Source of the DNA: Phyllobates terribilis
Lineage: Eukaryota
Length of the DNA: 64,000 nucleotides
Assembly (NCBI RefSeq): GCF_046119375.1
Contig: NW_027362762.1
Coordinates: forward strand, 929,566,001-929,630,000
Direction of reading: 5' to 3'
A program made the translations under genes and the position numbers. Shown piece by piece: positions 2,486-61,692 of this stretch. The stretch's first letter is position 1, and each line of letters starts with the position of its first letter. Under the pieces are notes generated by a model. It worked only from the letters and a program-made list of their open reading frames with translations, was not told where the DNA came from and searched no databases.

Positions 2486-3478
2486 TGTGGTACCCCAGGG
2501 GTCTGGTTTCCACAGTAACAGCAATGTTATGTCTGAGAGCAGGTGGGAGGTCTCTTGGTCAGGGATCCTATGCATGCCACACCTCCTGCCCAGTCCTGGG
2601 AGGGGAAGAACTTCCCCTATATAAACCTAGGGCTGAGGCAGGGTTAGTGAGTAGAGAAGAAGTAGAGAAGAGAAGCAGATATAGGAAAAGAACATCAGGA
2701 GCTCTGTGGGAGCAGTGCTATAAGGAGTCAGGGGCTGGTAGCTGCAGAGCTCGCCCTGACTGAGAAGCTATCACCGGACCCGGAGTCCGAGGCTGTGGGG
2801 ACTAATCTTTACCCAGCAGCAGAGACCGCCCGGCAGGGGATTTCAGGGCCTCTGGCCAAGAAACCCGAAGGCACGGTCACACGCGTAGGACCAGCACCGC
2901 CGTCGTGGAGCGGACGCCATTAGAAGGCCCCGAGTCACCGGCCATACGGGTGAGCACCACACGGTACACTCAGGGACGTGGGCTACTTATACCCGCCTCT
3001 AGCAAGGTAGCCAGAAGAGTACAGTCAGTTTGGGAGGCCTACAACTCCGCCTGGCCAGGGGAGATCCCATCTGCTCAAGGACTGACCAGGCCCCGATCGC
3101 TAGCCAGTACTCCGGGAGGGTCTATCTTTATCACCAGTAAAGACCCTGAACTACACCGCATCGTCTCTGAGTGATTCCTGATACCCCCATCATCCACGTC
3201 GGCTGCCCTGAGGCCATACCCCTCCCGTTGGGGGTGATACTACCACGCTGCACAATCCTACCACCGGCCTCAGCGGTCTGCCCTGCAGCGGCAGCTCCTT
3301 CGCTGCATTCAACGGGTGGCGTAGTCGTCCAACATCTACCGCTAATACAACGCCACTTAGTCTGACTCCCTGGGCACGGACCGGGTCACCGCCACGAGAC
3401 TACAACCCTCAACAGATCCGGCTCCGGGTAAGCTCCTGCATGCGCAACGCTGTGCGACACAGGCCCAGGGGTGCGTCA
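2486..3478 (+). repeat. 3' LTR of element A (993 bp)
   Basis: TG...CA ends; TATATAAA at 2618; AGTAAA candidate poly(A) signal at 3136; 3' end matches the other LTRs (GGGGTGCGTCA). Confidence 0.9.
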
Positions 3479-3790: not shown

Positions 3791-4992
3791 TGTGTCGGCC
3801 CTGCGGGTTCAGTTGCCACAGAGGTACTGCATCTCACCCAGAGGTGTGGTATCTCACTCTCAGGTAAGGAAGGAGTACTGCCCGGTACTGCATCCAACAC
3901 TACACTTCTCCAGACCAGCAGGAGGGCCAAGATGCTCTGCTACATGGCTGAGCCCTGTCCCTGGCTCTAGTGGGGGGAACCAAGAGAGGGGGAACCATGT
4001 AGTGGGTGTGGGTGGAGGAAGAAGTCAGGGGAGCACTTGAGAAGGAGGAAATAAAAATAGAAGCCATCTTGTGAAGTCAGTTGTTCAGAGGAGAAGTAGT
4101 GGGAGCAGGAGCTCTGCAGGAGCTCTGCTCAGGAGGAGGGCCTAGTGAGAGAGGCCCAGGACAGACTGAAGAGAGGAGAGGAGCAGGAAGGAAGGCTCCA
4201 GAACGGAAAGGATCCTAGGGGCACGGGCAGTGCGGATGCCACCCGTGCGCCCAAATTCACACTGACATGGAGGGATCAGGTCGCAGAGGGGACAGGCCCC
4301 TAAACTAGTGGAGTTTCTTAAAGTCTCAGCTAGATAACCGGAGAGTGTAGCATTCCAGGTGCTGCAGCCACAGCTACATCTAAATCGCCAAAAAGGTGGC
4401 CATAGATGACCCAGGGGACAGAGAAGACGTCGCCCGACAAGGTCCGCGGTCACTGACTTGGGACACTGGGTGTGAGGTGCAGGGAACGGCCAGAAGGAAC
4501 ACACAGAAAGGGTCCCGTTACGTACTCCGGAGGTACCTGGGAGTTTGCTGAACCCCTCCCTGAGTAAACACAGGACGGCATGGGAAGGTTTTTAGACCTT
4601 GGAGTCTAAAAATCGTGAGTAAAACCTTGAAGACTGCACCCCACTGTCTCTGCAAATTATTACTGCGCCATCATCCTCTGCACCACCCTGCACACCTACT
4701 TCATCTATAACATCACTACTCTGCCCTGGAGCTAAGCTCTACCTGTGGAGAGATAAACCAACTCTGCTGCATTAACAACAGTTCCTGAGGACCTGCTCCG
4801 CAGCGGCAGCTCCCTTTAGCCGCATACCACAGGTGGCGTTACGAACATTAAACCATAAAAACTATAATTCCCCTGTAAATTCCCCCTTTTATTGACCGCC
4901 CTGGGTCATGGACCGGGTCACTGCCACTGTGACATCTCCCCTAGCAACGACCGGCCCCACACCAAGTACCCCACGGCCCAGGGGGCGCGTCA
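3791..4992 (+). mobile_element. Solo Gypsy LTR inserted in the left TIR of the Tc1
   Basis: TGTGTCGGCCC...GGGGGCGCGTCA with CTTA TSD (3787-3790 and 4993-4996). Removing it restores the TIR sequence seen at the right end. Confidence 0.92.
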
Positions 4993-21439: not shown

Positions 21440-22400
<961 letters not shown>

Positions 22401-22900: not shown

Positions 22901-23180
22901 GTATCTATCTTTTCTCTGTTCTCTCTACATTTTTCCTCAAAACATGATGTCTTCTTTCAACAGTCTCCCCATCCTCCATGCACTAAGTAGCACTTCATAT
23001 CTCTACAGATACTGACTGGTGACTGATTCATGCAGCTGTATAGGAATACCCTTATTTAATATAAAAGATGGAATAGAAGCACTTTTTTTCCTTTTGTGTT
23101 ACCTTTATTTCCTTTTTGCTTGAAAGCTTGGTCACCAGCCAGTATCTGTATTTGTACATATATGAAATACTGAGTGCATG

Positions 23181-23542
23181 TCACGCGCCCAGGGGATGGG
23201 GACGACTCGGCGCCCGGGCCTTGCTGTTAGTTTTGGGGGATGCCGCGGTGGCCGGCTCCTGGGCCCGTACCCTGGGGTCACTCTTAAAAAGGGGGGAAAG
23301 GTTATTTGGGATAGGGAAATGTTTGTGACGCCACCTGTGGTGTCTGGTGAGGATCATCAGCGCTGTTGCAGTCCTCTGGGGCCGGCGGTCAGGCAGCTTA
23401 GTTGGTGCGGCTATCCGGGCTCCCTCTGGTGGTCTGAGGTGGTAGGGTGGAGGTGTGTGAATGCTATGAGGGCCTCTTGTGGAGAAATCCGTTCGTGCAC
23501 CCTTCTAGGATCTGTGGCACCAATGCGCAGCAGGGCGCCACA
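23181..23542 (-). repeat. 3' LTR of B, internally deleted (362 bp)
   Basis: Matches 29634-29865 joined to 30669-30798; PPT complement TTCCCCCCTA at 23543-23552. Confidence 0.9.
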
Positions 23543-24108
23543 TTCCCCCCTAGCAAAGCTCAGTACTCCCGGACTGAAGTACTTTTTATAACAACAATAA
23601 CAACTCTTCCCTTTACGGGAGGCACTTTGCTTGAACGTTACATATAAAACATTATAAATAATAAATAGATATGTACATATAATAAGCAACCCCAGAATTC
23701 AAGTCTCTTCCAGCGAGGTTCCTCGACAGGATGTCCATCTCACAGGGTAGAGTACTTGGTAGCTTGAGGGACCTGTCCCAAACCCTCGACGTAGGCCCTG
23801 GGGTGGCTGCAGGGCATGGAGATCCTGAGTTGGACCTCTGTTAGTGCCACACCAGAGAGGTTTTCCTTCTGAGGTCACCTAAAGGGGCACTCCAGGGAGT
23901 GCAATTATTTACAAGAAGCAGTTTTTGGGCTGCACATAGTCCTCAGCCTCAAAGTTCTTTAGGTACCCTAACGGGTAGTTAGAGGCAAACAAGAAAAGTG
24001 TCCATATCACTTAGATTGTCCATTGCAAGCATAACACAAAGTAATAAATACATACATATAATACCCCAGGGGCAACTATCTACACTGTCAGAGTTTCTTC
24101 CTTTACTT

Positions 24109-28227: not shown

Positions 28228-29242
28228 GGACAGCTCTGGACGGCGTGACCTGTCTTGTGGCAGCGGTGGCAGACAGGGTCCCTCGGCGGGCGGCGTTGGT
28301 CGCTGGTCCTCCCAGGGGGTGGCGTTGTCCTCCTCCTCCTTCTCATCCAGGGGACATCCTCAGGGCTGTCGGCTAGCAGAATCCTTCCTTCTGCCTCGGG
28401 CTCCGTCCGCAGCTGCAGGGCACTCAGTACAGAGGTCAGGGTTTTGCTCAACTGACGCACTTCAGAGCGCAGGCTGTCCAGCTCACTAGGGGACGTTGCT
28501 TGCACCTTGGCTTCAGCAGCTACCGGGGAAAAGGTGGACGCTGCAGGCACTGGGGTGGCCCCACCCTGGTAACATTGGATAGCAGTTGTTTCCAGGGGCT
28601 GCAGCCTTTTATAGCCATGTCCTTAAGGGTGTCAAAGGTGGCATCTGGATGATCCAGGGACCACCAACGCACAGTCCTGCTCTCCTCTTGAGACCTCAGT
28701 CTCCAGATAAACAGTTCCTTCAGCATCTTATTTTCACTATCGATGCTGGTTGGACTAACCTGTTTCAGAGCTCGCAGGGCCCCTTGTAAACGCCAGGCAT
28801 AGTCCCGAACACTGTCCTCCGGTTGCTCAGAGCAGTTGTAGAACCTCATCCGGAGGTCTGTCTCAGTACGATTCTCAAAGACAGTCTGTAACTTTTTAAA
28901 GATTGCGGACACTGACTCCTGGTCTGCGGCTGACCAGATTTCTACTTCTCGCTTCGCAGCACCATTCAATTGTCCCGATACAACAGCGGCTCTTTGCTTG
29001 CCTGTCATAGAGTACATGTCCAGTATACCGCATATTTTCCTTTTGAATCCAGACAGGGTATCTGGTTTGTCGCTGTACTGGGGGAGCCACTTCTCTCCAG
29101 GGATGTACGGTAGGGCCATGGGTATGACAGGGGTTACAAGCCCTGCTGGTGGAGCGGCTGCTCCGGCCTGCTCGGCATAGAGCGCGGGTTGATCATCAGG
29201 GTGGCTAACCGGTACTCCAGCGTTGTGATGTTCTTCAGACAT
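28182..29242 (-). pseudogene. gag: Gag of B (capsid plus CX2CX4HX4C), one frameshift near 28550
   Basis: ORFs 28520-29242 and 28182-28550; CHRCHKTGHAVQSC; WLPQYS motif shared with the gag of C. Confidence 0.88.
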
Positions 29243-29605
29243 TCTGGCGCCCCCCTAGCGAACCATGGCCTACCTTCTTTTCTTTTCTTCCGGTAGGCCG
29301 CAGCTCCGCAGGTGACGGTCTTCCTTCAGGACCTTGCGTCGCTTGCGTCCTACGTCAGAGCGCTCACCGGGGCTCCTTCCAGGACCTGGCGCTTCCTGGT
29401 TTGACGTCGAGGCGTGGGGCGTGTCCGGGGCTTCGCGCGCTTCAGCAGGTACGCCTCTCAGTTTCCCGTGGTTACGCCCTTCTTCCCGCTCGGCGGCCGA
29501 ACAATGGCGGCAATCTTCGCCACAGTTAAAATACACAGTTTTTGATTAAAGGTGCACAGTACCCGGTAGCAACGGGCACAACACTCCGTCGTTGCAGCAG
29601 GCACG

Positions 29606-29625
29606 GAATCCTGTTCGTGATGCCA
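29606..29625 (-). other. Primer-binding site of B, complementary to a tRNA-Ser(CGA)-type 3' end
   Basis: Minus strand reads TGGCATCACGAACAGGATTC; recalled vertebrate tRNA-Ser-CGA end GAATCCTGTTCGTGACGCCA gives one mismatch. Confidence 0.8.
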
Positions 29626-29633
29626 GTAAGAGA

Positions 29634-30798
29634 TGACGCGCCCAGGGGATGGGGACGACTCGGTGCCCGGGCCTTGCTGTTAGTTTTGGGGGATGCCGCG
29701 GTGGCCGGCTCCCGGGCCCGTACCCTGAGGTCACTCTTAAAAAGAGGGGAAAGGTTATTTGGGATAGGGAAATGTTCGTGACGCCACCCGTGGTGTCTGG
29801 TGAGGATCACCAGCGCTGCTGGAGTCCTCTGAGGCCGGTGGTCAGGCAGCTTAGTTGGTGCGGCTCCCCACAGGTGGAGCGGGACCTCAGGGCAGCGTAA
29901 AGAGGAGAGATGCAGGAGAAAGAGGACCCAGCCGGGTCAAGAGAAGAACAAGCAGACTCACAACAGTTCACTTCAGTACCTTTAATGGTGGTGTTTTCAG
30001 GCACGATCCAGGGCACTGTAGGGTGAAGGGTGCATTTCAGGACTCCCCCCAGTGAGCGGGTGTGGGGCCTCCTGTTTCTTGCCTTTTTCTGGTAAGTTTA
30101 TGACCTGCCTGGAGCTAGGCCTAACTTGGTCTCTGTCTGGCACCTGCTGACCTGGTGGTAGGGCCTTCTGTTGGAGATCACACTCCCTGGTCTCTTGGGC
30201 CTCTGTGATTCCTGACCCTGGGATAATGGTCAGCTTCTGGTATTCCTGGGTCATGTAGTTCGCCAGGGGTTCTGGTTGTTTCTGCTGGTCCTAGAGATCC
30301 TTGCAGACACGGACCCGGTGTCCGGTATATGGTCTTGGGGTGAGCTGGCTAAGCTCCTCTGCCCCCTATGTAGCTCGCTTACTCCACTCACCTTCGGCCA
30401 TGCTCGGGACCCTCACTAGGCTTCACACTGACAGTAGACCTCGCCACTCTTTACCGCTCTTATGGCGTCGGCACGCCTTAGGCTCGCTAACTTGAGCTTC
30501 ACTCTAGGCTTTCTCACTAGAGGAACTGAACTGAGAACTCTCTCCCTCTCTGGCTCTGAGCAGGAACTCTGTTCTCTAGACTGAGCTCGACTCTGTATTC
30601 AGACCTGTACTTGCTGAACTCTCCAGAGAAACTGCCTGTATAACGCCACCCTCCGTATATATAACCCTATCCGGGCTCCCTCTGGTGGTCTGAGGTGGTA
30701 GGGTGGAGGTGTGTGAATGCTATGAGGGCCTCTTGTGGAGAAATCTGTCCATGCACCCCTGTAGGATCTGTGGCACCAATGCGCAGCAGGGCGCCACA
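29634..30798 (-). repeat. 5' LTR of B (1165 bp)
   Basis: Minus strand TGTGGCGCCC...GGGCGCGTCA; TATATATA near 30657-30663. Confidence 0.92.
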
Positions 30799-30802
30799 CA
30801 TG

Positions 30803-31170: not shown

Positions 31171-32744
<1,574 letters not shown>

Positions 32745-38697: not shown

Positions 38698-39647
38698 TTA
38701 ATTTATGAAAATGGGAAGGGAGCACCAGGATGTCTTTTTGTGAATGAATAGAAGTGTTGTGGTGTCAGGCAGCTGCTGAAAGGGGGCTGATTTTTTATAA
38801 TTGCTATGAAGCCATCCTCTGTGTAAACAATTACTCTTTTACTTATTTACGGGGAAAGTAACCTGCACTTTCTCAGCCACAATATAACACTGTGATCGTG
38901 TAGTGTAAATTCCTTTGCAGGTGTTATTCCTAGAGAACAACACATTTACATTGATACATTGAACCTTCAACTGAATTGCTGTGTAAAACATTCGCCCATG
39001 TATCATTTCCTTTTCTCTCTCTTGCCGGTTTCTGCTTTTATTATTTTTTTTTTCTTGTTTTCAAGTGGATTTGTTATTCTTCAAAACTCTCAATCAGGTC
39101 AACGCGATACAGAAGAATGTGGTTTCTCGGGCACGGAGACCTGTTTCCCAGCGACAGCTTAGCACCGTCTCCTTTTTCGCTTTCATAGTACGGCTGCAGG
39201 TTTTTGGAAGACGTCCATGCTCTAGAAATAGTTGCTGTTTATCCAAGCGGTGGATGAATTGTGTACGTGTGTGGAGACTGCCCTTCTTCATCCCGTCCAC
39301 TGTTATGATGTAGTACACGAGAGGAAGCAGGTACGAGCGGAGAGGTAACAGTTATTGAAATGAAGAATCCTTTGTTGGCCTAACCACTCCCCTTCTAGCT
39401 ATCATATCATTGGCCGGTAAACTCGTTCGACCTGATAAACAGGTACTTTTTCTCCACTTGGTGGTATTTCAATTTTTAGAAACAGTTCAGTACATAGAAT
39501 TCCAACCAGTCTCTGCTGGATCTGAGTTGGTAGCAGGTGGCTGAGACTTGTTCCACAGTATTTCTCAGTGGAGATCTAATGTGTTCTTCGCGTGCACCTG
39601 AGATCATCATCCAGCATCTTCTGCAGCACAACCACTGCTAAACCATC

Positions 39648-40325
39648 ATGGATAAAGGCGCTGTGCAAATAGCCGGATTGGTACTAGGATGCATTGGCTT
39701 AATTGGCACTTGCGCAGTGACTGGCATGCCCCAATGGAGGGTGACGGCTTTCATCGAGAACAATATTGTCGTGTTTGAAGCCCTTTGGGAAGGCCTATGG
39801 ATGAACTGCTTCCGACAAGCCAACATCCGAATGCAATGTAAAATATATGACTCCCTGCTGGCGCTTACACCGGATTTGCAAGCAGGTAGAGCACTGATGT
39901 GCATCGCTGTGGTTTTGTCATTCCTGGCCTTCATGATTGCAATCATTGGCATGAAATGCACCAACTGCGCTGAAGACAATGAGAAGACCAAAAGGATCAT
40001 AGTCCTAATTTCAGGAATTTGTTTCATCTTGTCCGGTATCATTGTATTGATTCCAGTTTCTTGGACGGCCAGTCATATCATCAGAGATTTCTACAACCCT
40101 TTGGTCAACGCGGCTCAGAAGAGAGAGCTTGGGGACGCGCTCTACATGGGTTGGGCAACAGCACTTTGTCTGGTGGCCGGTGGGATCATTTTATGTTGTG
40201 CGTGTTCCCCCACTGACAGGAAGTACAAATATTCTTTACCTCCAAAATCAGCTGCGTCAAATGCCCCTCGAGAAGGAGTGGCAAGGAAGACTTCAAGTTT
40301 GTACTCAAAGAGCCAATATGTTTAG
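39648..40325 (+). CDS. cldn8: Claudin-8-like tight-junction protein, 225 aa, single coding exon
   Basis: Kozak-like accatcATGg; four TM helices; W-GLW-C-C signature; [17 protein letters not shown]...[17 protein letters not shown] is nearly identical to recalled CLDN8; QKRELG; C-terminal PDZ motif SQYV. The exact paralog (cldn8.x or cldn17) is not resolved. Confidence 0.93.
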
Positions 40326-44814: not shown

Positions 44815-45828
44815 TGTGGCTCCCTGCTGTTCACAGGACCCAAAAGGGTGCATGGTTGGACTTCTCCACAAGAGGCCCTCATTACAAACAAACACCTCCA
44901 CCCTTCCACCTCATACCACCAGAGGGAGCCCGTTAGGGATATATATATGGAGGGTGGAGCCAGGCAGCGCAGTCAGTCAGAAGTTAGTCTGAGGAGAGCG
45001 TGCTGACGCTGAGAGCAGCGAAGACGCAGCACGTCTGCTGCTGTATTGAGGGCCCCGAGTGTGGCCGGAGGTGAGAGGAGAGAGGAGTTGAGGGGGGCAG
45101 AGGAGCATCATAGGCTCACCCCCGAGTATACAAACCGGACACCGGGTCCGCGCCTACAGGGTCCCTTTATACCCAGTAGGGATCACCGGCATACCAGGAG
45201 GAATACAAGTCCCTGGTCGACCTGAAGCTAAACTCATTACAGGACCAGGAACTACGAAGGCCCCGGCGCCCAGGGATAGTGGTTGCCAGCGGAAGGTCCT
45301 ACTACCAAGCGACAGGTGAAGAGAGCAACACGACACAGAAGCTAGGCCCAGTTGCAGGAGCTTAGAGAGAGGGAGACACGGACCAGGAGGCCTTATACCC
45401 GCTCACTGGGGAGAAGTCCTGAAGTGCACCCTTCCTACCGAGTACCCTGGACCGTACCTGACATCCGCACCAGTAAAGGTATTGAAGCGAATCCCCTGTC
45501 TCTGTCAGTTACTCCTGCTGCGCCATCCCGTCTGCACTACAAGCCCCAGCATCACCACCCACCGTCAAACTCTACACTGCCCTGAGGCCCGCTCCACCTG
45601 TGGGGAGCTGTTCCATCCTAGCTGCCTATCAACTGCCTCAGAGGTCTGCAGCAGCGCTGGTACAAATTACCAGAAACCACAGGTGGCGTCACGATCAAAC
45701 TACAAATCCCATATAAACTATCCCCTTTTTGTTGACTGCCCTGGGCCATGGACCGGGCCAGCCACTGTGACATATTCCCCCCCAGCATCCATAGGCCCCG
45801 AGTACCCCACTGCCCTGGGGGCGCGTCA
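44815..45828 (+). mobile_element. Solo Gypsy LTR of the A/B/C group
   Basis: TGTGGCTCCC...GGGGGCGCGTCA; TAAT TSD (44811-44814 and 45829-45832); TATATATAT box at about 44940. Confidence 0.92.
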
Positions 45829-47279: not shown

Positions 47280-47510
47280 CTTTGTCCTCTTGGTCAACTT
47301 CTTCAGGGTCATCTTCTTGGTCTTCTTCGGGTTGGTCTTCAGGGTCCTCGTCTTCGGGGGTCCTCGTCTTCTTCGGGGTGGTCTTCAGGGTCCTCGTCTT
47401 CTTCGGGGTAGTCTTCAGGGTCCTCGTCTTAAGTGTCGTCGTCTTCGGGGTCCTCGTCTTCTTCGGGTTGGTCTTCAGGGTCCTCGTCTTCAGGGTCCTC
47501 GTCAGGGAGA
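47280..47510. repeat. Short-period GGGTCCTCGTCTTC tandem repeat
   Basis: Repeated cttcagggtcctcgt and cttcgggg units. Confidence 0.85.
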
Positions 47511-47559
47511 TCCACAGTGATTACCAAGAACCATTTCAAAAAGCTTGAACTTGGAAATG

Positions 47560-50135
47560 TAGCAGAAGGTACAAGAAGGCTGAGGAACTACCGAGGACCA
47601 GCTGACGGTACTGGAACTCGGTTACTAAGCAGGAGGTACCTGTGCCAGAAAGCACTACCAAGGACCAGCAGATGTTGGTGGAACTTGGATACCGAGAAGG
47701 AGGCACCTAATCCAAAGGCACTGCCGAGAACCAGCTGACGGTACTTGAACCCGGATGGGTAGCAGAAGGTACAAGAGCCAATGGAACTATCGACGACCAG
47801 CTGACAGTACTGGAACTCGGTTACTAAGCAGGAGGTACCTGTGCCAGAAAGCACTATCAAGGAACAGCAGACGTTGGTGGAACTTGGATACTGAGAAGGA
47901 GGCACCTAATCCAAAGGCACTGCCGAGAACCAACTGACGGTACTGGAACCCGGATGGGTAGTAGAAGGTACAAGAGCAAATGGAACTACCGAGGACCAGC
48001 TGATGGTACTGGAACCCGGATGGGTAGCAGAAGGTACAAGAGCCAATGGAACTACCGAAGACCAGCTGACGGTACTGGAACTTGGTTACTAAGCAGGAGG
48101 TACCTGTGCCAGAAAGCACTACCAAGGACAAGCAGATATTGGTGGAACTTGGATACCGAGAAGGAGGCACCTAAGCCAAAGGCACTGCCGAGAACCAGCT
48201 GACGGTACTTGAACTCGGATGGGTAGCAGAAGGTACCCATGTAAAAAAAAGTTTCAAGGCCGCGAGCGGGCCGCAGTTACCCAAACCCACAGTCCTACAG
48301 GGGGTGCTTGTCCTATTGGCACTATGGAACCAGCCTTCATTGCCAGATCCTGCAGCCCACACAGGAGTCACCAAAACTGCAGGCACCATAGAGTCGGCTA
48401 ACCCGAGCGCAACACGACAGGACAACGCATTGGAGGCAAAGTGACGTTGACACTACCCGGAAACAGCTGGCGTGCTGGAACCAGGCTGGGCAGAAGGGAG
48501 TACCCATGCCAAAGACACTGCCGAGAACCAGCTGACGGTACTGGAACCCAGATGGGTAGTAGAAGGTACAAGAGCAAATGGAACTACCGAGGACCAGCTG
48601 ACGGTACTGGAACCCGGATGGGTAGCAGAAAGTACAAGAGCCAATAGAACTATCGAGGACCAGCTGACGGTACTGGAACTCGGTTACTAAGCAGGAGGTA
48701 CCTGTGCCAGAAAGCACTACCAAGGACCAGCAGACGTTGGTGGAACTTGGATACTGAGAAGGAGGCACCTAATCCAAAGGCACTGCCAAGAACCAGCTGA
48801 CGGTACTGGAACCCGGATGGGTAGCAGAAGGTACCCATGTAAAACAAAGTTTCAAGGCCGCGAGCCGGCCGCAGTTACCAAAACCCACAGTCCTACAGGG
48901 GGTGCTTGTCCTATTGGCACTATGGAACCAGCCTTCATTGCCAGATCCCGCAGCCCACATAGGAGTCACCTAAACTGCAGTCACCATAGAATCGGCTAAC
49001 CCGACCGCAACACGACAGGGCAACGCATTGGAGGCAAAGTGACGTTGACACTACCCGGAAACAGCTGGCGTGCTGGAACCAGGCTGGGCAGAAGGGAGTA
49101 CCCATGCCAAAGACACTGCCGAGAACCAGCTGACGGTACTGGAACCCAGATGGGTAGTAGAAGGTACAAGAGCAAATGGAACTACCGAGGACCAGCTGAC
49201 GGTACTGGAACCCGGATGGGTAGCAGAAGGTACAAGAGCCAATAGAACTATCGAGGACCAGCTGACGGTACTGGAACTCGGTTACTAAGCAGGAGGTACC
49301 TGTGCCAGAAAGCACTACCAAGGACCAGCAGACGTTGGTGGAACTTGGATACTGAGAAGGAGGCACCTAATCCAAAGGCACTGCCGAGAACCAGCTGACG
49401 GTATTGGAACCCGGATGGGTAGCAGAAGGTACCCATGTAAAAAAAAGTTTCAAGGCCGCGAGCCGGCCGCAGTTACCAAAACCCACAGTCCTAGTCCTTG
49501 TCCTATTGGCACTATGGAACCAGCCTTCATTGCCAGATCCCGCAGCCCACATAGGAGTCACCTAAACTGCAGGCACCATAGAATCGGCTAACCCGACCGC
49601 AACACGATAGGGCAACGCATTGGAGGCAAAGTGACGTTGACACTACCCGGAAACAGCTGGCGTGCTGGAACCAGGCTGGGCAGGAGGAAGTACCCGTGCC
49701 AAAGACACTGCTGGGAAACAGCTGGCGGTGCTGGAACCCAGGGTAAATACTAAAAACAGAGTGGAGCCAGAGGAATAATTAGAGCAACTTTAAAATCTGT
49801 AGTAGTGTGAATATGGACAGAGCAGGAGAATTTGCCGGACACACAGCTGGGGAACTGCTGACATTACTGAACCCCAATAACACTGGAGCAAGCGTTGACT
49901 GTGCAGACGGCACTTCTGAGCAGCAACTAGCGGTATTGGAGCCCAGGGTAAATACTAAAAACAGAGGAGCCAGAGGTGTAATTGGAGCAAGTTTTAAATC
50001 AGTAGTACAGTGGATGTGGACAAAGCAGGAGAATTTGCCGGACACACAGCTGGGGAACAGCTGACGTTACTGAACCCCAATAACACGGCAGCAAGTGTTG
50101 ACTGTGCAGACGGCACTTCCGAGCGCCAACTGACC
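47560..50135. repeat. About 66-bp monomer array with 199-bp and 598-bp higher-order periodicity
   Basis: Anchor GTTACTAAGC at 47621, 47820, 48085, 48683 and 49281; CATGTAAAA at 48238, 48836 and 49434. Confidence 0.92.
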
Positions 50136-53770: not shown

Positions 53771-54765
53771 TGTGGCACCCCAAGGTCTGGTTGCCACAGT
53801 GGCAGCAATGTCATGTCTGAGAGCAGGTGGGAGGTTCCCTGGTTGGTGACAATTAGCATGCAGCACCTCCTGCCTCAGTCCAGGGAGGGGAGAAACCTGC
53901 CCTTTATAAACTGGATCTGGGGCGGGGTTAGTGAGTCTAGTTCCAGAGACAGGGACAGGTCAGCAGCAGGCTGAGGAGTCCCTGAAGGCAGAGGAGAAAC
54001 ACGAGGCCAGGAGGGGAACTAGAAGAGTTCGTCCTGGCCAGAGACTTGAAAAGCCAGACACTGGAGTCCGAGGCTGTGAGGGTTATAAGCCCAGCAGCAG
54101 AAAACCACCACACAGGGGACTTCAAGTCCTCTGGCCCAAGGAAGCCCGGAGGCTCAGCCACACGAGAGGGACCACTACTGCCCTGGAGGGGTGAGAAGCA
54201 CGGAAGGCCCGAGTCGCCAGTCATACGTGTGAGAACAACACGGTACACTCAGAGACGTGGGCTACCACTACACTACAGCAGGATAGCCAAGAAAGAGTGA
54301 AGTCAGCACGGTAGGCCTACAAACTCCCCCTGACCAGCGGGATTTCCCAGTTGCTCTCCGACTGACCAGGCCTCCATTGTTAACCTGTATTCCGGACGGG
54401 TCCCTTAATACCACCAACAGTAAAGACCCTGAATTGCATGACAGACTCCGTGTGGTTACTGCTGCTCCCGCGCACCATCACCACCAACATCCACACTTGC
54501 TGCCCTGAGGCTATACTCCTCCCGTGGGGAGTTATACTATCCTCTGCTGCACCCACAACACCAGCCTCAGTGGTCAGCCCTGCAGCGGCGGTTCACTCTG
54601 ACCGCAATCCACGGGTAGCGTAGTCGGACATTCAGCATATAGACTGCCATTTAGTTTGACCACCCTGAGCCACGGACCGGGTCACCGCCACGCGGAGACT
54701 ACAACCCCCAGCATCCCACAAAAGGCCCAGTTCCGGGTTCCCCACACGGCCCAGGGGGTGCGTCA
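53771..54765 (+). repeat. 5' LTR of C (995 bp)
   Basis: TGTGGCACCC...GTGCGTCA; TATAAA at 53905; AGTAAA at 54419. Confidence 0.95.
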
Positions 54766-54769
54766 ACTT

Positions 54770-54788
54770 TGGCGTAGTCGGCAGGATT
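54770..54788 (+). other. Primer-binding site of C, complementary to a tRNA-Ser(AGA/TGA)-type 3' end
   Basis: TGGCGTAGTCGGCAGGATT is the reverse complement of the recalled AATCCTGCCGACTACGCCA. Confidence 0.88.
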
Positions 54789-55131
54789 TCGTGCCCGCCA
54801 CCAACGGGTACTGCGTGCCTGAGGAAAGACTGTAAAACTTACCTTGGTGGAGTTTCCCGCCATCCGCAGCCATTTCCCGCCATCCGCAGCCATTTTCCCG
54901 CCATCGGGCGCTATCTTTGGGACGAAGAGGGGCGTGGACGACGAAAGCGCGCGAGAACTGGAGCCCCGCCTTACGCACGGACGCTGCGCAAGGTCCTGAA
55001 AGGAGCCGAGCGGACGCTGAAGTCACCAGGACGCGACGCAAGGTCCTCAACCCCGACGATCGCCTGCGGAGCCGCGGCCTACAGAAGAAAAGCAACGGAA
55101 GGTAGGCCACGGTTGACTAGGGGGGAAGAGG

Positions 55132-56118
55132 ATGACGGAAGCGGAGGGAACTGTCACCGCCAGCGCGGCTGCTGCCGCAGTAATGCCGTTCACGATGCCT
55201 TATATCCCCGGAGCGGCCTGGTTGCCCCAGTACTCAGGGGAGTCGCATACCCTGAGCAACTTTAAAGAGAGACTATATAGCCTATTCAAGGTGTACCCGC
55301 TGACGGAAGAACAAAAAGTGACCATACTGATAGGCCAGTTAACCAGCGCGGCCCAACGAGAAGTAAAGTCCTGGTCAGTCAGGGACAAGGGGACCGTGAA
55401 GGAGATTTTAGCCCGTCTAAAGGACACTTTTGATACCCACACCTCAGCAGAGATCAAAATGAGATTTTATGGGTGCAAGCAGCGGGCCCAAGACAGTATC
55501 AGAGACTATGCTTTGAATTTGCAAGAGGCCCTGAGAGCCATCAAGCAGGCAGACCCTGACAGTGTGAGGAATGCAGATGAACTGCTGACTGAACAATTCA
55601 CTGAGGGTCTGCTGTCCAGCGCCCACCGAACCCAGTTACGCCTGATGGCCCTGCAGAACCCTGAGTTAGACTTTGCACAGTATAAGGACAGAGCCATCCG
55701 GGTACTCCGAGAACCCGCACCCGGTGGCGTTGCGGCCTCCAGGCGCCCTGCTATCACTTATCACCAAGAGGTGGCACCCCAGTCTCCAGAATCTGCAGGA
55801 GCCAACGCACAGACTAGTACCCCATCTACAGACCTGCACCATCAGGTCCAAGAACTGACTAAAAGCGTTGCCGCACTAACCAGGACTGTACAGTCGTTGC
55901 AGGTATCCTCTCCAGGAAAGATCCAGCTGGCTACCAGTCTGGAGGACGTCCCGTGGCACCGACAGAAGAGGATCCCACCGTTCAGAGGGAAGCCAACGGA
56001 CCGCTACGACCAGGATGGACAGCCCATCTGCCGCAGCTGCAGCCAGCCAGGACATATTGCGAGGTACTGTAATTTAAACGGGCCCAACCTGGGGCAGAGG
56101 GCCAACCCCCAGGTGTAG
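55132..56118 (+). CDS. gag: Gag of C, 328 aa, intact (capsid plus CCHC zinc knuckle)
   Basis: ATG to TAG open; MHR-like QRAQDSIRDYALNL; CRSCSQPGHIARYC. Confidence 0.9.
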   Translation: MTEAEGTVTASAAAAAVMPFTMPYIPGAAWLPQYSGESHTLSNFKERLYSLFKVYPLTEEQKVTILIGQLTSAAQREVKSWSVRDKGTVKEILARLKDTFDTHTSAEIKMRFYGCKQRAQDSIRDYALNLQEALRAIKQADPDSVRNADELLTEQFTEGLLSSAHRTQLRLMALQNPELDFAQYKDRAIRVLREPAPGGVAASRRPAITYHQEVAPQSPESAGANAQTSTPSTDLHHQVQELTKSVAALTRTVQSLQVSSPGKIQLATSLEDVPWHRQKRIPPFRGKPTDRYDQDGQPICRSCSQPGHIARYCNLNGPNLGQRANPQV

Positions 56119-56131
56119 GATCATCAGGCCC
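56073..56131 (+). promoter_or_regulatory. Candidate -1 ribosomal frameshift signal (T TTA AAC plus pseudoknot)
   Basis: Heptamer is in gag phase; the -1 frame is open into PR; 7-nt spacer; stems ACCTGGGG/CCCCAGGT and GGGCC/GGCCC. Confidence 0.8.
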
Positions 56132-59100
56132 GTCAAACAGGCGTGACAAGTATGTGGGGGGACGACCGGTCTTGCCTGTGGTACTGGATGGCATTCCTAT
56201 GAGTGCACTGTTGGACACTGGGTCACAGGTAACCACCATCCCCTATGTACTTTTCAAGCGGTACTGGGATGACACGGATATTACCCGCTACCCAGATAAT
56301 GACTTGAGCATCATCGCCAGCAATGGTCAGCCCGTGCCGCAGGTGGGGTTCAAGGAGGTGACCATCAAGATTGGTAAAGTTGAACTGCCGGCGCAAGGAC
56401 TGATTATTGTGGACATTGACCGTCGTGAAAGTCACCCTAAAATAACCTTGGGTACTAACGTTATTGAAAATTGTCTTTCAGAGATAATTGTTTTATTACA
56501 GCAGGTTGCAATGAATGCCAGCTACAGCCAGCAGCGTGTCTTACAAAAGGAGATCAGAGCCCTGATGAAGCGGCAACAGGTAGAACTGTCTGGTGGTGAG
56601 ATTGGAAGCGTTAGGATGAGTGACCCATTCCCTATCGCCATGCCCCCAAAAAGTGAAATGATGATCTGGTGCCGGTCTGCAATCGGGTTAAGAGGTAGAG
56701 ACTACCAAGCTATGGTAGAACCCGTTTACTCAGACAGTAGGCCCACCATTTTGACAGCACGGGGGGTGGTTGATGTCCGCCATGGGAGGGTACCAGTCCG
56801 CATCCTAAATATTGGGGAAAGAGAAGTACACTTGCCCCGGTATGCCACTCTAGCCAAATTGTTCACCATTAACCAGAACTCTGTAAAGGCCGTGGAACCC
56901 TTGCGTCCATCTCAACCAGAGGAGGGTAATGGCTCCAAGAAACAAATGGAGGACTGGTGTCAGAACTGCATGTGGGCACCGACTCCACTCCCTCACACCA
57001 CAAACAGGGAGTCTACCGGGTGGTTCAGGAGTACAAAAGAGTTTTTAGCAAACACCCGCTAGACTTTGGGCAAGTAAAGGGGTTAGAACACCAAATCCCC
57101 ACAGGAGACCATCCACCCATAAAAGAGAGATACTGGCCTGTACCCCCTGCACACTATCAGAATGCCAAGGGTATGTTGCGAGAAATGAAGGAGGCTGGGG
57201 TGATCAGGGATAGCTGTAGCCTCTGGGCAGCTCCTCTAGTTCTTGTAAAAAAGAAGGATGGCACGATGAGGATGTGTGTAGATTATAGAAAGGTCAACAG
57301 AATAACACACAAAGATGCGTACCCGTTACCTAGGATAGAGGAGTCTTTGGCTGCACTAAAATCTGCTAAATTCTTCTCTACTTTGGATCTCACTAGCGGG
57401 TACGGGCAGGTTCCTGTAGCAGAGTCAGACAAGGAGAAGACCGCCTTCACCACTCCGATGGGTCTCAGTGAATTCAACTGTATGCCGTTCGGACTCTGCA
57501 ATGCACCAGGGACCTTCCAGAGGCTGAAGGAGTGCTGTCTGGGGCACAGGAATTTTCGAGATGGTCCTACTCTACATGGACGATGTCATCGTATATTCCA
57601 AGACCTATGAGGACCATCTAAAGCACCTGGCAGAGGTGTTCGACGCCCTGGCAGGCTTCGGCCTAAAGGTGAAACCCTCCAAGTGTCATCTACTGAAGCC
57701 AAAAGTACAGTACCTGGGACACGTGGTGAGTGCTGACGGAGTAGCCCCAGACCCTGACAAGATCACGGTGATTAAGGACTGGCCAAGGCCCTCCAGCATA
57801 AAGGAAGTGCGGCAGTTCCTCGGGTTGGTAGGCTACTACTGAAGATTCATCTCCGGATTCACCAAAATGGCAGCCCCTATGCAGGACCTCCTGTTAGGTC
57901 AGTCAAAGACTAAAAGTCAGAAGCCGCCCTTTAAGTGGGACAAGCTGGAGGAGGAGTTTTTCTGCCAGATGAAGATGGCCCTCACGGGGGATGAGATCCT
58001 GGCCTACCCTGATTACGGCCAGCCTTTTATCCTCCACACCGACGCCAGTAATGTGGGGCTAAGAGCCGTACTGTCCCAGATCCAGCAGGGCAGAGAACGG
58101 GTAATTGCTTATGCTAGCAGAAAGCTGAGACCCACAGAGAGAAACCCTGAGAATTATAGCTCCTTCAAGCTAGAGTTCCTGGCAGTGGTGTGGGCCGTCA
58201 CTGAACGCTTCAAGCATTACCTGACTTCTTCTAAGTTCACTGTGTACACGGACAACAACCCGTTGACACACCTGGACACTGCAAGACTTGGTGCCCTGGA
58301 GCAGAGATGGATGGCCCGGCTGTCCAATTATGAATTTACCATCAAATCCCGGACAGGGCGCGCAAATGCCAACGCAGATGCATTGTCCAGAATGCCTCAC
58401 TTGCAGGACGGGGGAGAGGATCCAGAAGAACTGGAAGAAATTGAACTCCCTGCATTCCACCGTCATGGGGTCACCCAGTATTCCCACTGCATAAAGGAGA
58501 GGTGCTCTGCTACCGCTACGTTCAATCCCTTACCCCACCACGGCTGGGCCGAGATGCAAGATAGTGACCCCGCAGTCCGCCTGGTGAAAGAGATGCTGAC
58601 CCAGGCTGATGCCCACCTTGATCCGGATGCTCCAGAAGAGGCCAAACAGCTGTGGAAGGAGAGGAGCAAGCTGTTTCTCTATGAGGGGAGGCTGTGCCGC
58701 AGGACCGTCAACTCTCGAACACACGAGCTGATCTGGCAGATAGTGGTCCCAAGGCAGGATGCGGCTATGGTCCTAGAAGCATACCATGACGGCGCAGGGC
58801 ACTTTGGATGGAAGAAGCTGGAGTTCCTGTTGCGTGAGCGGTTCTTCTGGGTAGGCATGAGAGGGGCTATAGAGAGATGGTGCAGAGACTGTGGCACGTG
58901 AAACCTAAAGAGGAAGGACCGTGCCAGCCAGAAGACTCCCCTGCGGCCCATCATCACAAAGCAGCCCCTTGGGCTGGTGGCCCTGGACCGCGTAAAGCTG
59001 GCTCCAAGCAGATCGGGATACGTCTACGCCCTCACAATCGTAGATCACTACTCCCGGTTCCTAGTGGTGGTCCCTGTCAAAGACTTAACAGCTCAGACGG

Positions 59101-60320
59101 CCGCCAGAGCCTTTCAACAGCATTTCTGCCGTCCACACGGGTATCCGGAGCAAGTGTTGACCGATCAAGGTCCAGCGTTCGAGGCTGAAGTCTTTCAGGA
59201 ATTCTGCAACCTGTATGGCTGCAAGAAGATAAGGACAATGCCTTACCACCCCCAAACCAACGGAATGTGTGAGAAAATGAACCAGGTAGTAATAGACCTG
59301 CTCAAGACGTTGCCCCTGGAGGAATGCAACCTGTGGCCTGAGAAACTGCCGGATCTGGTGGACTTGTATAACTATATCCCAGTGGGTTCTACCAACTGCA
59401 CCCCGGCTTACTTAATGAGGGCAAGACCTGGTAAGCTGCCAATTGACCTGGAGATGGGAGTCCTGACACCCGAGGACACCTCACCAGAAGCAGACTGGGA
59501 CACAGAACGACAGCAGCAGTACCGGAAAGTACAGGAGAGCGTGGAGCGAAGTCTGTCTCAAGCCAGAGACAGGCAAGAGAGAGATTACAACCAGCATGCT
59601 CCTGCTGCTCCCCTGGCACCTGGAGAGCAGGTCTTGAAGAGGAAGAGATGGCTCCACAAGTTGGATGATGAGTGGGAGAAAGACCCGTACACCGTACTGC
59701 CGTCAAGCCATGAAAACACAAAGGTGTGTGTTATCAGTAAGGATGGAGGAGAGACCACAGCCACTGTCTCCAGAGACCACCTGAAGAAGTGTCCCGAGCA
59801 GCTGAAAAGTGCTGATGAAGACCAAGATAGCCCTCAACCCGCAGAGGAAAGGGAAGAAATGGTCAGTACAGTGCTCGGAGAATTTCCCCGTTCCTGGACA
59901 CAAATCAACAACGCTATAGTGGTACCCGTCCTTGCCTTTCTCCAGCCAGCCCCTCAAGGGCCTGCAGAAGAGCAAGTAGTGTTGGAAGAGCAAGTGGCCC
60001 CAGAGGCAGAAGAGTCCATACCAGCAGCCCAGGAGAATCAACCCTCTGCTAGTAGTGAACCTGCCATGCCCATGGTGAGCCAAAGAGTACGCAGAAAGCT
60101 GCCCAACCTACCCGTAACATCTGCAAACACCTCTAGTGCAGACATGAGCACACCCAGTACACAGGGGGTGGAAATAGGGGATCCAAATAGAGTACCACCA
60201 GACAGTGGGTTACGTAGGTCCACCAGGAGCACTAAAGGTCTAATGCCCGCTCGCTGGAGAATCGAAATGCCAAGTATATATCTACCTGTATATTGCAAAT
60301 GTTTTATGCTTGTTACCTGA
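56073..60320 (+). pseudogene. pol: Pol of C (PR, RT, RNase H, integrase) broken by frameshifts and stops
   Basis: Five consecutive ORF pieces; LLDTGS, YMDD, YTDNNPL, DD35E; premature TGA at 57840 and 58899; natural stop apparently lost near 60264. Confidence 0.93.
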
Positions 60321-60710
60321 TTATTAATAATGTTTTTCTAGTCTTTCTAGTTCAATGGACTAACAGGTTATGGACGCTGAATAACCGGAACTGTTGTGTA
60401 GATAGTTGCACCTGGTGCCCTCTTTCGAAGATGGCCATGGAAGAAAAACCTGTCCGGCGTGGCCCCTTGTGGCCCAAAGTAGATAGCTCAGCCTTGTCAC
60501 CATGCCCAAGGCCAGGAACTTGGGGTTTATGGAGACAGGTCCCCACACCGTTGAAGTTATACCTCGTTGGGTGACATGGACAGTCACCCGGTTGCAGATA
60601 AGCTGTGACCCTCAAGAATTAAAAATGTATATATATATGTTTATGTTATTGCTTTTACCCTGTATTTGTGTTTCCTAAAATGTGTTTAGTCCGGAGTACT
60701 AAATTTCACT

Positions 60711-60719
60711 AGGGGGGAA
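60711..60719 (+). other. Polypurine tract of C
   Basis: AGGGGGGAA adjacent to the LTR TG. Confidence 0.88.
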
Positions 60720-61692
60720 TGTGGCACCCCGAGGTCTGGTTGCCACAGTGGCAGCAATGTCATGTCTGAGAGCAGGTGGGAGGTTCCCTGGTTGGGGACA
60801 ATTAGCATGCAGCACCTCCTGCCTCAGTCCAGGGAGGGGAGAAACCTGCCCTTTATAAACTGGATCTGGGGCGGGGTTAGTGAGTCTAGTTCCAGAGACA
60901 GGGACAGGTCAGCAGCAGGCTGAGGAGTCCCTGTAGGCAGAGGAGAAACAGGAGGGGAACTAGAAGAGTTCGTCCTGGCCAGAGACTTGAAAAGCCGAGG
61001 CTGTGAGGATTATAAGCCCAACAGCAGAAAACCACCACGCAGGGGACTTCAAGTCCTCTGGCCCAAGGAAGCCCGGAGGCTCAGCCACACGAGAGGGACC
61101 ACTACTGCCCTGGAGGGGTGAGAAGCACGGAAGGCCCGAGTCGCCAGTCATATTAGTGAGAACAACACGGTACACTCAGAGACGTGGGCTACCACTACAC
61201 TACAGCAGGATAGCCAAGAAAGAGTGAAGTCAGCACGGTAGGCCTACAAACTCCCCCTGACCAGCGGGATTTCCCAGTTGCTCTCCGACTGACCAGGCCT
61301 CCATTGTTAACCTGTATTCCGGACGGGTCCCTTAATACCACCAACAGTAAAGACCCTGAATTGCATGACAGACTCCGTGTGGTTACTGCTGCTCCCGCGC
61401 ACCATCACCACCAACATCCACACTTGCTGCCCTGAGGCTATACTCCTCCCGTGGGGAGTTATACTATCCTCTGCTGAACCCACAACACCAGCCTCAGCGG
61501 TCTGCCCTGCAGCGGCGGTTCACTCTGACCGCAATCCACGGGTGGCGTAGTCGGACATTCAGCATATAGACTGCCATTTAGTTTGACCACCCTGAGCCAC
61601 GGACTGGGTCACCGCCACGCGGAGACTACAACACCCAGCATCCCACAAAAGGCCCGGTTCCGAGTTCCCCACACGGCCCAGGGGGTGCGTCA
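60720..61692 (+). repeat. 3' LTR of C (973 bp)
   Basis: Matches the 5' LTR apart from 8-bp and 14-bp deletions and roughly 17 substitutions. Confidence 0.95.

Follow-up and report, generated by a model that had tools for sequence, protein, structure and literature searches.

The window analysed in this work is a stretch of 64,000 nucleotides from Phyllobates terribilis, whose genome size is 10.6 Gb, and all positions are given within that stretch. Element B spans positions 30798 to 23181 on the minus strand and is flanked by a 4-bp target site duplication (TSD). It has a primer binding site (PBS) and two further short sites, termed S1 and S2. The features of element B are as follows:

29634..30798, minus strand, 5' LTR, with the 4-bp TSD at 30799-30802 and 23177-23180
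30653..30665, minus strand, putative promoter, a TATA-like element some 135 nt into the LTR
29981..29986, minus strand, probable poly(A) hexamer that precedes S1 by 200 nt
29774..29786, minus strand, S1, the internal PBS copy, complement of tRNA nt 64-76
29695..29706, minus strand, S2, which complements nt 1-12 at the tRNA 5' end and is predicted to lie in a loop of 34 nt
29626..29633, minus strand, 8-nt spacer from the LTR-terminal CA to the PBS, without which the 3' LTR ends
29606..29625, minus strand, PBS of tRNA-Ser(CGA) type, 19/20 to the host tRNA 3' end
28520..29254, minus strand, PNMA-like gag ORF with an early stop, 244 aa
25154..28222, minus strand, pol ORF with RT, RNase H and the start of integrase, broken inside integrase
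23543-23551, polypurine tract adjoining the 3' LTR
23181..23542, minus strand, 3' LTR, with S1 at 23321-23333 and S2 at 23242-23253

Element B is a Ty3/Gypsy LTR retrotransposon without the env of an errantivirus or a retrovirus. The assignment is based on the two LTRs with a TSD, the PBS after the 5' LTR, the polypurine tract before the 3' LTR, the pol order of RT, RNase H and integrase, and gag upstream. No env ORF was found in B, and no ORF of 150 aa exists from integrase to the 3' LTR. The 3' LTR lacks about 800 nt of the middle of the 5' LTR (23411-23412 compared with 29866-30666), so that both the TATA-like element and the poly(A)-like hexamer are gone. Despite that loss, it retains both ends, S1 and S2. 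A weak dUTPase-like match (E 0.0009, below the Pfam cut-off) is located at pol residues 185-275, from the protease region to RT. Frog proteins are among the closest RT relatives (up to 81% identity), and the next relatives are from fish and lancelet (about 52-60% identity).

The window also contains element C, a relative of B with 68% identity over 3.8 kb, and three further LTRs that carry S1:

53771-61692, plus strand, element C
53771-54765, plus strand, 5' LTR of C
54616..54628, plus strand, S1 of the C 5' LTR, AGA type, with the 3' LTR copy at 61543-61555
54687..54702, plus strand, S2 of C, AGA type, split by a 5-nt insert, with the 3' LTR copy at 61614-61629
54770..54787, plus strand, PBS of C, tRNA-Ser(AGA/TGA) type, 18/18 match
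45684..45771, plus strand, solo LTR D, CGA type, with S1 at 45684-45696 and S2 at 45761-45771
4834..4933, plus strand, LTR fragment E, CGA type, with S1 at 4834-4846 and S2 at 4923-4933
3317..3403, plus strand, 3' LTR of element A, AGA type, with S1 at 3317-3329 and S2 at 3391-3403

A protease is seen in C, and PNMA-like gag is present in both B and C. Other features of the window are a claudin-family ORF of 227 aa (39642-40325) that is probably a host gene, two Tc1/mariner transposase ORFs (31475-32539, 354 aa from stop to stop, and 21666-22400), and a complex tandem repeat at 47282-50131 with units of 15-30 nt and of 66, 199 and 598 nt.

The spacer from the LTR-terminal CA to the PBS was scored in 87 of the 106 sampled loci. 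It has 3-9 nt, mostly 4, 5 or 8, as in B (29626-29633) and C (54766-54769). The CA position marks the end of 3' and solo LTRs, which have a 4-bp TSD. Integrase usually trims 2 nt, so it would have to trim more than 2 nt here. The spacer also looks complementary to a sequence about 110 nt upstream.

Both PBS types were compared with the tRNA-Ser genes of the host. The earlier note had read the PBS of B as Ser-CGA type with one transition. This is borne out by the host tRNA-Ser(CGA) gene L068, where 19 of the 3' 20 nt (with CCA) match and the exception is a G>A transition. The host tRNA-Ser(AGA) genes (L076-L090) have 3' ends that complement the AGA-type PBS, and this tRNA end is common to Ser(AGA) and a Ser(TGA) isodecoder. 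The host genome search found no further tRNA-Ser isodecoder genes. Host tRNA-Ser(CGA) or tRNA-Ser(AGA) genes make up 16 of the 30 loci examined for PBS-complementary tRNA ends. The remaining 14 are elements in which the PBS continues into the tRNA body, reaching up to about 50 nt into it in L062, L066, L067, L069-L072 and L075. These extended PBSs are evidently plus-strand read-through of the primer that became fixed in the genome. The read-through of L071 carries the CGA anticodon loop and that of L066 the TGA anticodon loop, so the sequences themselves directly attest which primers were used. Genome-wide, 9,421 PBSs are of CGA type and 69,769 are of AGA type.

S1 is a copy of 11-13 nt of the PBS that lies inside the LTR, about 160 nt upstream of the PBS. 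As the earlier note had described, the site of B at 29774-29786 matches at 13 of 13 positions, 140 nt inside the LTR end (29634), and its copy in the 3' LTR (23321-23333) has one mismatch. The other type was also confirmed at both sites of C, with AGA type at the PBS (18/18) and at 54616 and 61543. S1 tracks the cognate tRNA to position 13 in CGA elements or position 11 in AGA elements and decays after that. The mean pairwise identity of S1 is 0.85 in CGA and 0.94 in AGA elements, compared with 0.32 and 0.50 in the following linker and 0.61 and 0.71 upstream.

S1 and the PBS are of the same type almost throughout the genome. Pairs of like type, 125-170 nt apart, number at least 5,156 for CGA-CGA and at least 60,520 for AGA-AGA, and these counts are lower bounds. 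Mixed pairs number at least five (4 + 1) against at least 65,676 matched pairs, and the reversed-pattern controls gave 0. These counts and controls show that the pairing of types is not due to chance. Among the 106 PBS loci sampled, 98 have a readable S1, which matches the type of the PBS in 97 and ties in one. The opposite type was found in none of the 98, so the random mismatching of the two sites that the earlier note had set against its own reading is not what the genome exhibits. The other eight loci have no readable S1 at the usual distance owing to deletions, insertions and, in one case, membership of an unrelated family. All five mixed matches are on one strand. Three of them are chimeras of a CGA-type LTR joined to an AGA-type PBS and leader, two of which retain part of the old PBS as a stub. 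In one, an AGA-type S1 has a small deletion. The fifth (L095) has a CGA PBS under AGA-type S1 and S2 and belongs to an AGA family, family F, in which four of the five PBS-bearing copies have the AGA PBS and one has the CGA PBS (30 loci). L095 is evidently a one-off mispriming.

Outside the PBS, S2 as well as S1 is complementary to the primer tRNA. S2 complements tRNA nt 1-12; it lies downstream of S1 and precedes the PBS by about 70-95 nt. It covers nt 7-12 of the tRNA, for which the PBS and S1 have no counterpart. In B, S2 forms 11 of 12 possible pairs with nt 1-12, one of them G-U. The 5' end of the cognate tRNA pairs better with S2 than that of the other type in 25 of 28 CGA loci and 28 of 30 AGA loci (62 loci examined, 4 of them without an S1 call). 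Segments of 11 nt of the tRNA were also scanned over the 330 nt upstream of the PBS in subsamples of three groups (15 of 45 CGA loci, 16 of 48 loci of the main AGA clade, and all four loci of family F). All three groups exhibit peaks at nt 1-11 and at the 3' end. The excess over shuffles at the 5' and 3' ends is -5.7 and -6.6 kcal/mol in CGA elements and -7.6 and -8.4 kcal/mol in family F. In the main AGA clade it is only -2.5 kcal/mol at the 5' end and -8.5 kcal/mol at the 3' end. Interior segments are otherwise near the shuffle level. The scan gave no peak for the TpsiC, D or anticodon arms, except for one segment in family F (nt 49-59, -5.4 kcal/mol, 4 members). The S1-S2 stretch was also considered as a whole antisense-tRNA copy or SINE-like insert, and this was rejected as the tRNA interior is not complementary in the scan.

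The form of S2 differs between the two AGA clades. It is contiguous with 12 pairs in family F and split by 0-5 nt in the main clade, of which the basal members L190 and L195 still contain a CGA-type S2 core. Family F is short, with about 3.3-3.9 kb between LTR copies (L126/L127, L137/L143 and L147/L133). No gag match was found in the stretch examined, and the family is likely to be non-autonomous.

The LTR tree was constructed from the 260 nt upstream of S1 with 96 rows, after exclusion of eight rows without S1 and two long-branch rows, and it agrees with an earlier tree of 64 rows. The tree exhibits two joint changes of PBS, S1 and S2 from CGA to AGA type. The earlier note had proposed scoring co-variation on the phylogeny, and on this tree the sites do change together, twice. 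Both AGA clades are nested within CGA elements, and monophyly of the AGA elements is rejected (p-AU 0.018). The module tree was constructed from the stretch from S1 to the PBS with S2 masked (136 columns), and it does not reject a single AGA origin (p-AU 0.51). The AGA module may thus have arisen once and been transferred by recombination. The independent changes appear to number one or two, not thousands. B-like gag is associated with the CGA type only and C-like gag with both types. Based on this distribution and on the nesting in the LTR tree, the CGA type is likely to be the older state, and the lineage of C rather than that of B is likely to have switched. The earlier note had attributed the switch to B. 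The joint change of its sites stands, and the direction is probably the reverse.

Elements with unusual PBSs serve as natural controls. The pattern for other Ser-type PBSs gave 52 matches in the genome and 7 in the control. The 30 matches examined consist of Ser-GCT families, whose LTRs are unrelated, of isolated one-offs and of matches due to chance, and none of these 30 represents an established third primer type in this clade. Fourteen of the 30 are elements with CGA-type LTRs and a different PBS core, and their best LTR matches fall on nine different sampled loci. The CGA-type S1 is kept in 13 of these 14 loci, and so is the CGA-type S2 (13 of 14). These copies are read as single primings by another tRNA-Ser, and they show the PBS being rewritten by the priming tRNA while S1 and S2 stay unchanged. 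Recopying of S1 from the primer is ruled out by S1 being kept under a rewritten PBS. A good internal PBS copy is absent from fourteen Ser-GCT loci, L098 and L192, of which 12 of 16 have none and 4 of 16 have a match with two mismatches. L192 is a distant element that has the same AGA PBS and an RT that is 61% identical, with no S1 in the approximately 600 nt covered upstream, so priming by tRNA-Ser does not need S1. The S1/S2 feature is thus particular to this clade.

In 59 of 62 loci, S1 is preceded at about 150-240 nt by a poly(A)-like hexamer. Its position suggests that S1 and S2 lie in U5 and hence would be confined to the 5' end of the genomic RNA. The ends of the element RNA were not located in the contigs of four runs. 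The consensus fold of 97 rows places S2 in an unpaired loop of 34 nt that an 11-bp stem closes, and it pairs both halves of the PBS with their neighbours. Fold predictions do not give a sense-strand tRNA mimic with S1 and S2 as its acceptor stem. A leader base about 30 nt 3' of the PBS co-varies with PBS position 12 (consensus columns 214 and 247). The pair is G-C in the main AGA clade, A-U in CGA elements and G-U in family F, and it is paired in 97 of 97 rows. This base is possibly a fourth type-linked position.

Over 11-13 nt, S1 is complementary to the 3' acceptor strand and CCA end of the primer tRNA-Ser, and S2 is complementary to nt 1-12. The two sites therefore complement both strands of the acceptor stem. 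On balance, they probably capture and open the tRNA and probably decide which tRNA becomes the primer. One tRNA 3' end cannot pair with S1 and the PBS together, and capture followed by hand-over would be the simplest account. The single-stranded NCCA end of the tRNA would seed on S1, and the freed 5' strand would be held by S2 in its open loop. The 18-nt PBS, which is predicted to be partly folded in the free RNA, would then take over the 3' strand, and S2 may keep hold of the 5' strand after that. If a wrong tRNA rewrote the PBS, that PBS would revert or fail, and a lasting primer switch would therefore need all three sites to change. Co-folding with tRNA favours the cognate tRNA in 84 of 97 loci, although it cannot model loop pairing and its 5'-end helix is not always S2, and it was therefore not used for S2.

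Several findings speak against capture. In single-sequence folds, S1 and S2 are no more open than the PBS, as the unpaired fractions of S1, S2 and PBS are 0.38, 0.33 and 0.43 in CGA elements and 0.27, 0.24 and 0.31 in AGA elements. The 7 nt 5' of S1 are also conserved and have no tRNA partner. S2 is held more loosely than S1, with an identity in CGA elements of 0.74 compared with 0.73 in the adjacent loop, and the subgroup of B retains an S2 mismatch opposite A4. The earlier note had claimed selection on tRNA pairing at S1 and the PBS. Selection on S1 is indeed pointed to, since S1 is conserved above its flanks and is not rewritten when the PBS is. Pairing at S1 itself stays putative, and the third co-varying site, S2, had been missed.

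A fuller version of capture is put forward tentatively, as possible and somewhat doubtful. It would be a four-strand exchange in which S1 and S2 take both acceptor strands, with the CCA end and nt 8-12 as toeholds, and pass the tRNA in its opened state to the PBS, over a distance of 160 nt. The CGA-to-AGA switches would be the record of this exchange, with two independent solutions for the 5'-end site.

It is unlikely that S1 never binds the tRNA and acts within the element RNA instead. S1 would then be a decoy that pairs S2 or another anti-PBS sequence and frees the PBS, and it would track the PBS since it must pair with the would-be partner of the PBS. The symmetry of the acceptor stem does make the S2 core complementary to both the PBS and S1 (6 bp), a further S1 complement is present about 30 nt downstream in the main AGA clade (54642-54650 in C), and the partly folded PBS predicted above would suit such a switch. 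However, the expected S1-S2 pairs in single-sequence folds are 0.2 or fewer and the S2-PBS pairs 0.1-0.8, and family F has no downstream S1 complement. S1 also keeps the exact complement of CCA and the discriminator in register, and in CGA elements it keeps the T-stem complement, which S2 cannot pair.

S1 could also be a relic, an old PBS at an old LTR end that was kept by descent within a module copied whole once or twice. This agrees with the module tree, which does not reject one origin of the AGA module, and with the sequence before S1, where an inverted copy of the first five bases of the LTR plus two nucleotides is found (a CCACA-GG-TGG context that is conserved in CGA elements). We nevertheless consider a relic improbable because S1 is conserved far above the linker across diverged subfamilies. 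The sequence from S1 to the PBS is homologous in both types and the three sites differ, so that S1 and S2 must have changed in place. Deletion from S1 to the PBS was seen once (L159) among 30 loci, with no spread within the sample.

A role at the DNA level appears just as improbable. S1 or its minus-strand complement would dock the tRNA-derived end in plus-strand transfer, or S1 would be a second priming site. In the minus strand, S2 and S1 do read as the 5' and 3' ends of a tRNA at about one tRNA length apart. However, very few LTRs terminate at the S1 boundary (34 pattern matches genome-wide), and this rarity speaks against S1 as a productive second primer site. Only two of the 30 matches examined end there, neither with a demonstrated TSD; the others are the L159 deletion, two that are not LTRs, and local deletions or substitutions. 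S1 is also neither extended nor rewritten from the primer. The last alternative, that S1 and S2 act as sponges for 3' and 5' tRNA fragments which would otherwise block the PBS, is highly improbable: 3'-tRFs are reported to target PBSs (PMC7472051, PMC12853362), but S1 pairs over 11-13 nt against 18 for the PBS and would be a poor competitor, and the rarity of odd-PBS copies would be left unexplained.

The two sites have practical consequences. PBS-based annotation may misplace LTR ends in this clade because of the internal PBS copy, and solo LTRs of the clade carry target sites of tRNA fragments. To our knowledge, what is known of the way in which a retroelement picks and opens one out of many tRNAs comes from a few engineered systems. 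The frog genome has about 65,000 copies that preserve the trace of a natural primer switch, one in which S1 and S2 change with the PBS, and rare one-off misprimings provide the controls. Our literature search, with subscription journals, Repbase entries and supplements outside its scope, found no paper that describes, within one LTR, a repeat of the PBS together with a site for the tRNA 5' end, and none on the PBS of this clade.

Capture of the primer tRNA by S1 and S2 can be compared with four known systems, each as described in the accessible text of the cited papers. In Ty1, the TpsiC and D arms of the tRNA pair with extra sites that are located within GAG, 3' of the PBS, and a 10-nt acceptor-stem site and separate nearby sites are needed for packaging and initiation (PMC4974528). 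The frog element similarly has a short acceptor-stem site and separate sites for the same tRNA, and the S1-then-S2 order is the same. Unlike Ty1, it also has a full 18-nt PBS, and the sites it has in addition match the two acceptor strands and are found upstream, within the LTR. In Ty3, parts of the PBS sit at the genome's opposite ends and have been proposed to circularise the RNA (PMC4974528). Both are Gypsy-group elements with more than one site for one tRNA, whereas the three sites of the frog element would all be at the 5' end if the reading of the poly(A)-like hexamer holds.

Drosophila gypsy has two 11-nt sites for tRNA-Lys2, of which only the canonical PBS primes, and the second site lies near the 3' end and pairs with the anticodon and TpsiC stems (PMC1635307). 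It is likewise a Gypsy element with an extra tRNA-binding site. However, its second site is not a PBS repeat, and the portions of that paper available describe no natural co-switch (PMC1635307). In HIV-1, a PBS that is changed alone reverts, and a stable primer change needs a second site to be changed; the PAS and the A-rich loop pair with the TpsiC arm and the anticodon, and the switches were engineered (PMC3185550, PMC11181671). In both HIV-1 and the frog element, a lasting primer change involves a site beyond the PBS. The frog switch differs in being natural and in involving a duplicate of the 3'-end site together with a 5'-end site. The best reading of the sequences is that S1 and S2 would work like the multipartite PBSs of Ty1, Ty3 and gypsy while contacting other parts of the tRNA. 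As far as those sources describe them, Ty1, Ty3, gypsy and HIV-1 make other contacts than those predicted here, which involve a repeat of the 3'-end site and the tRNA 5' end.
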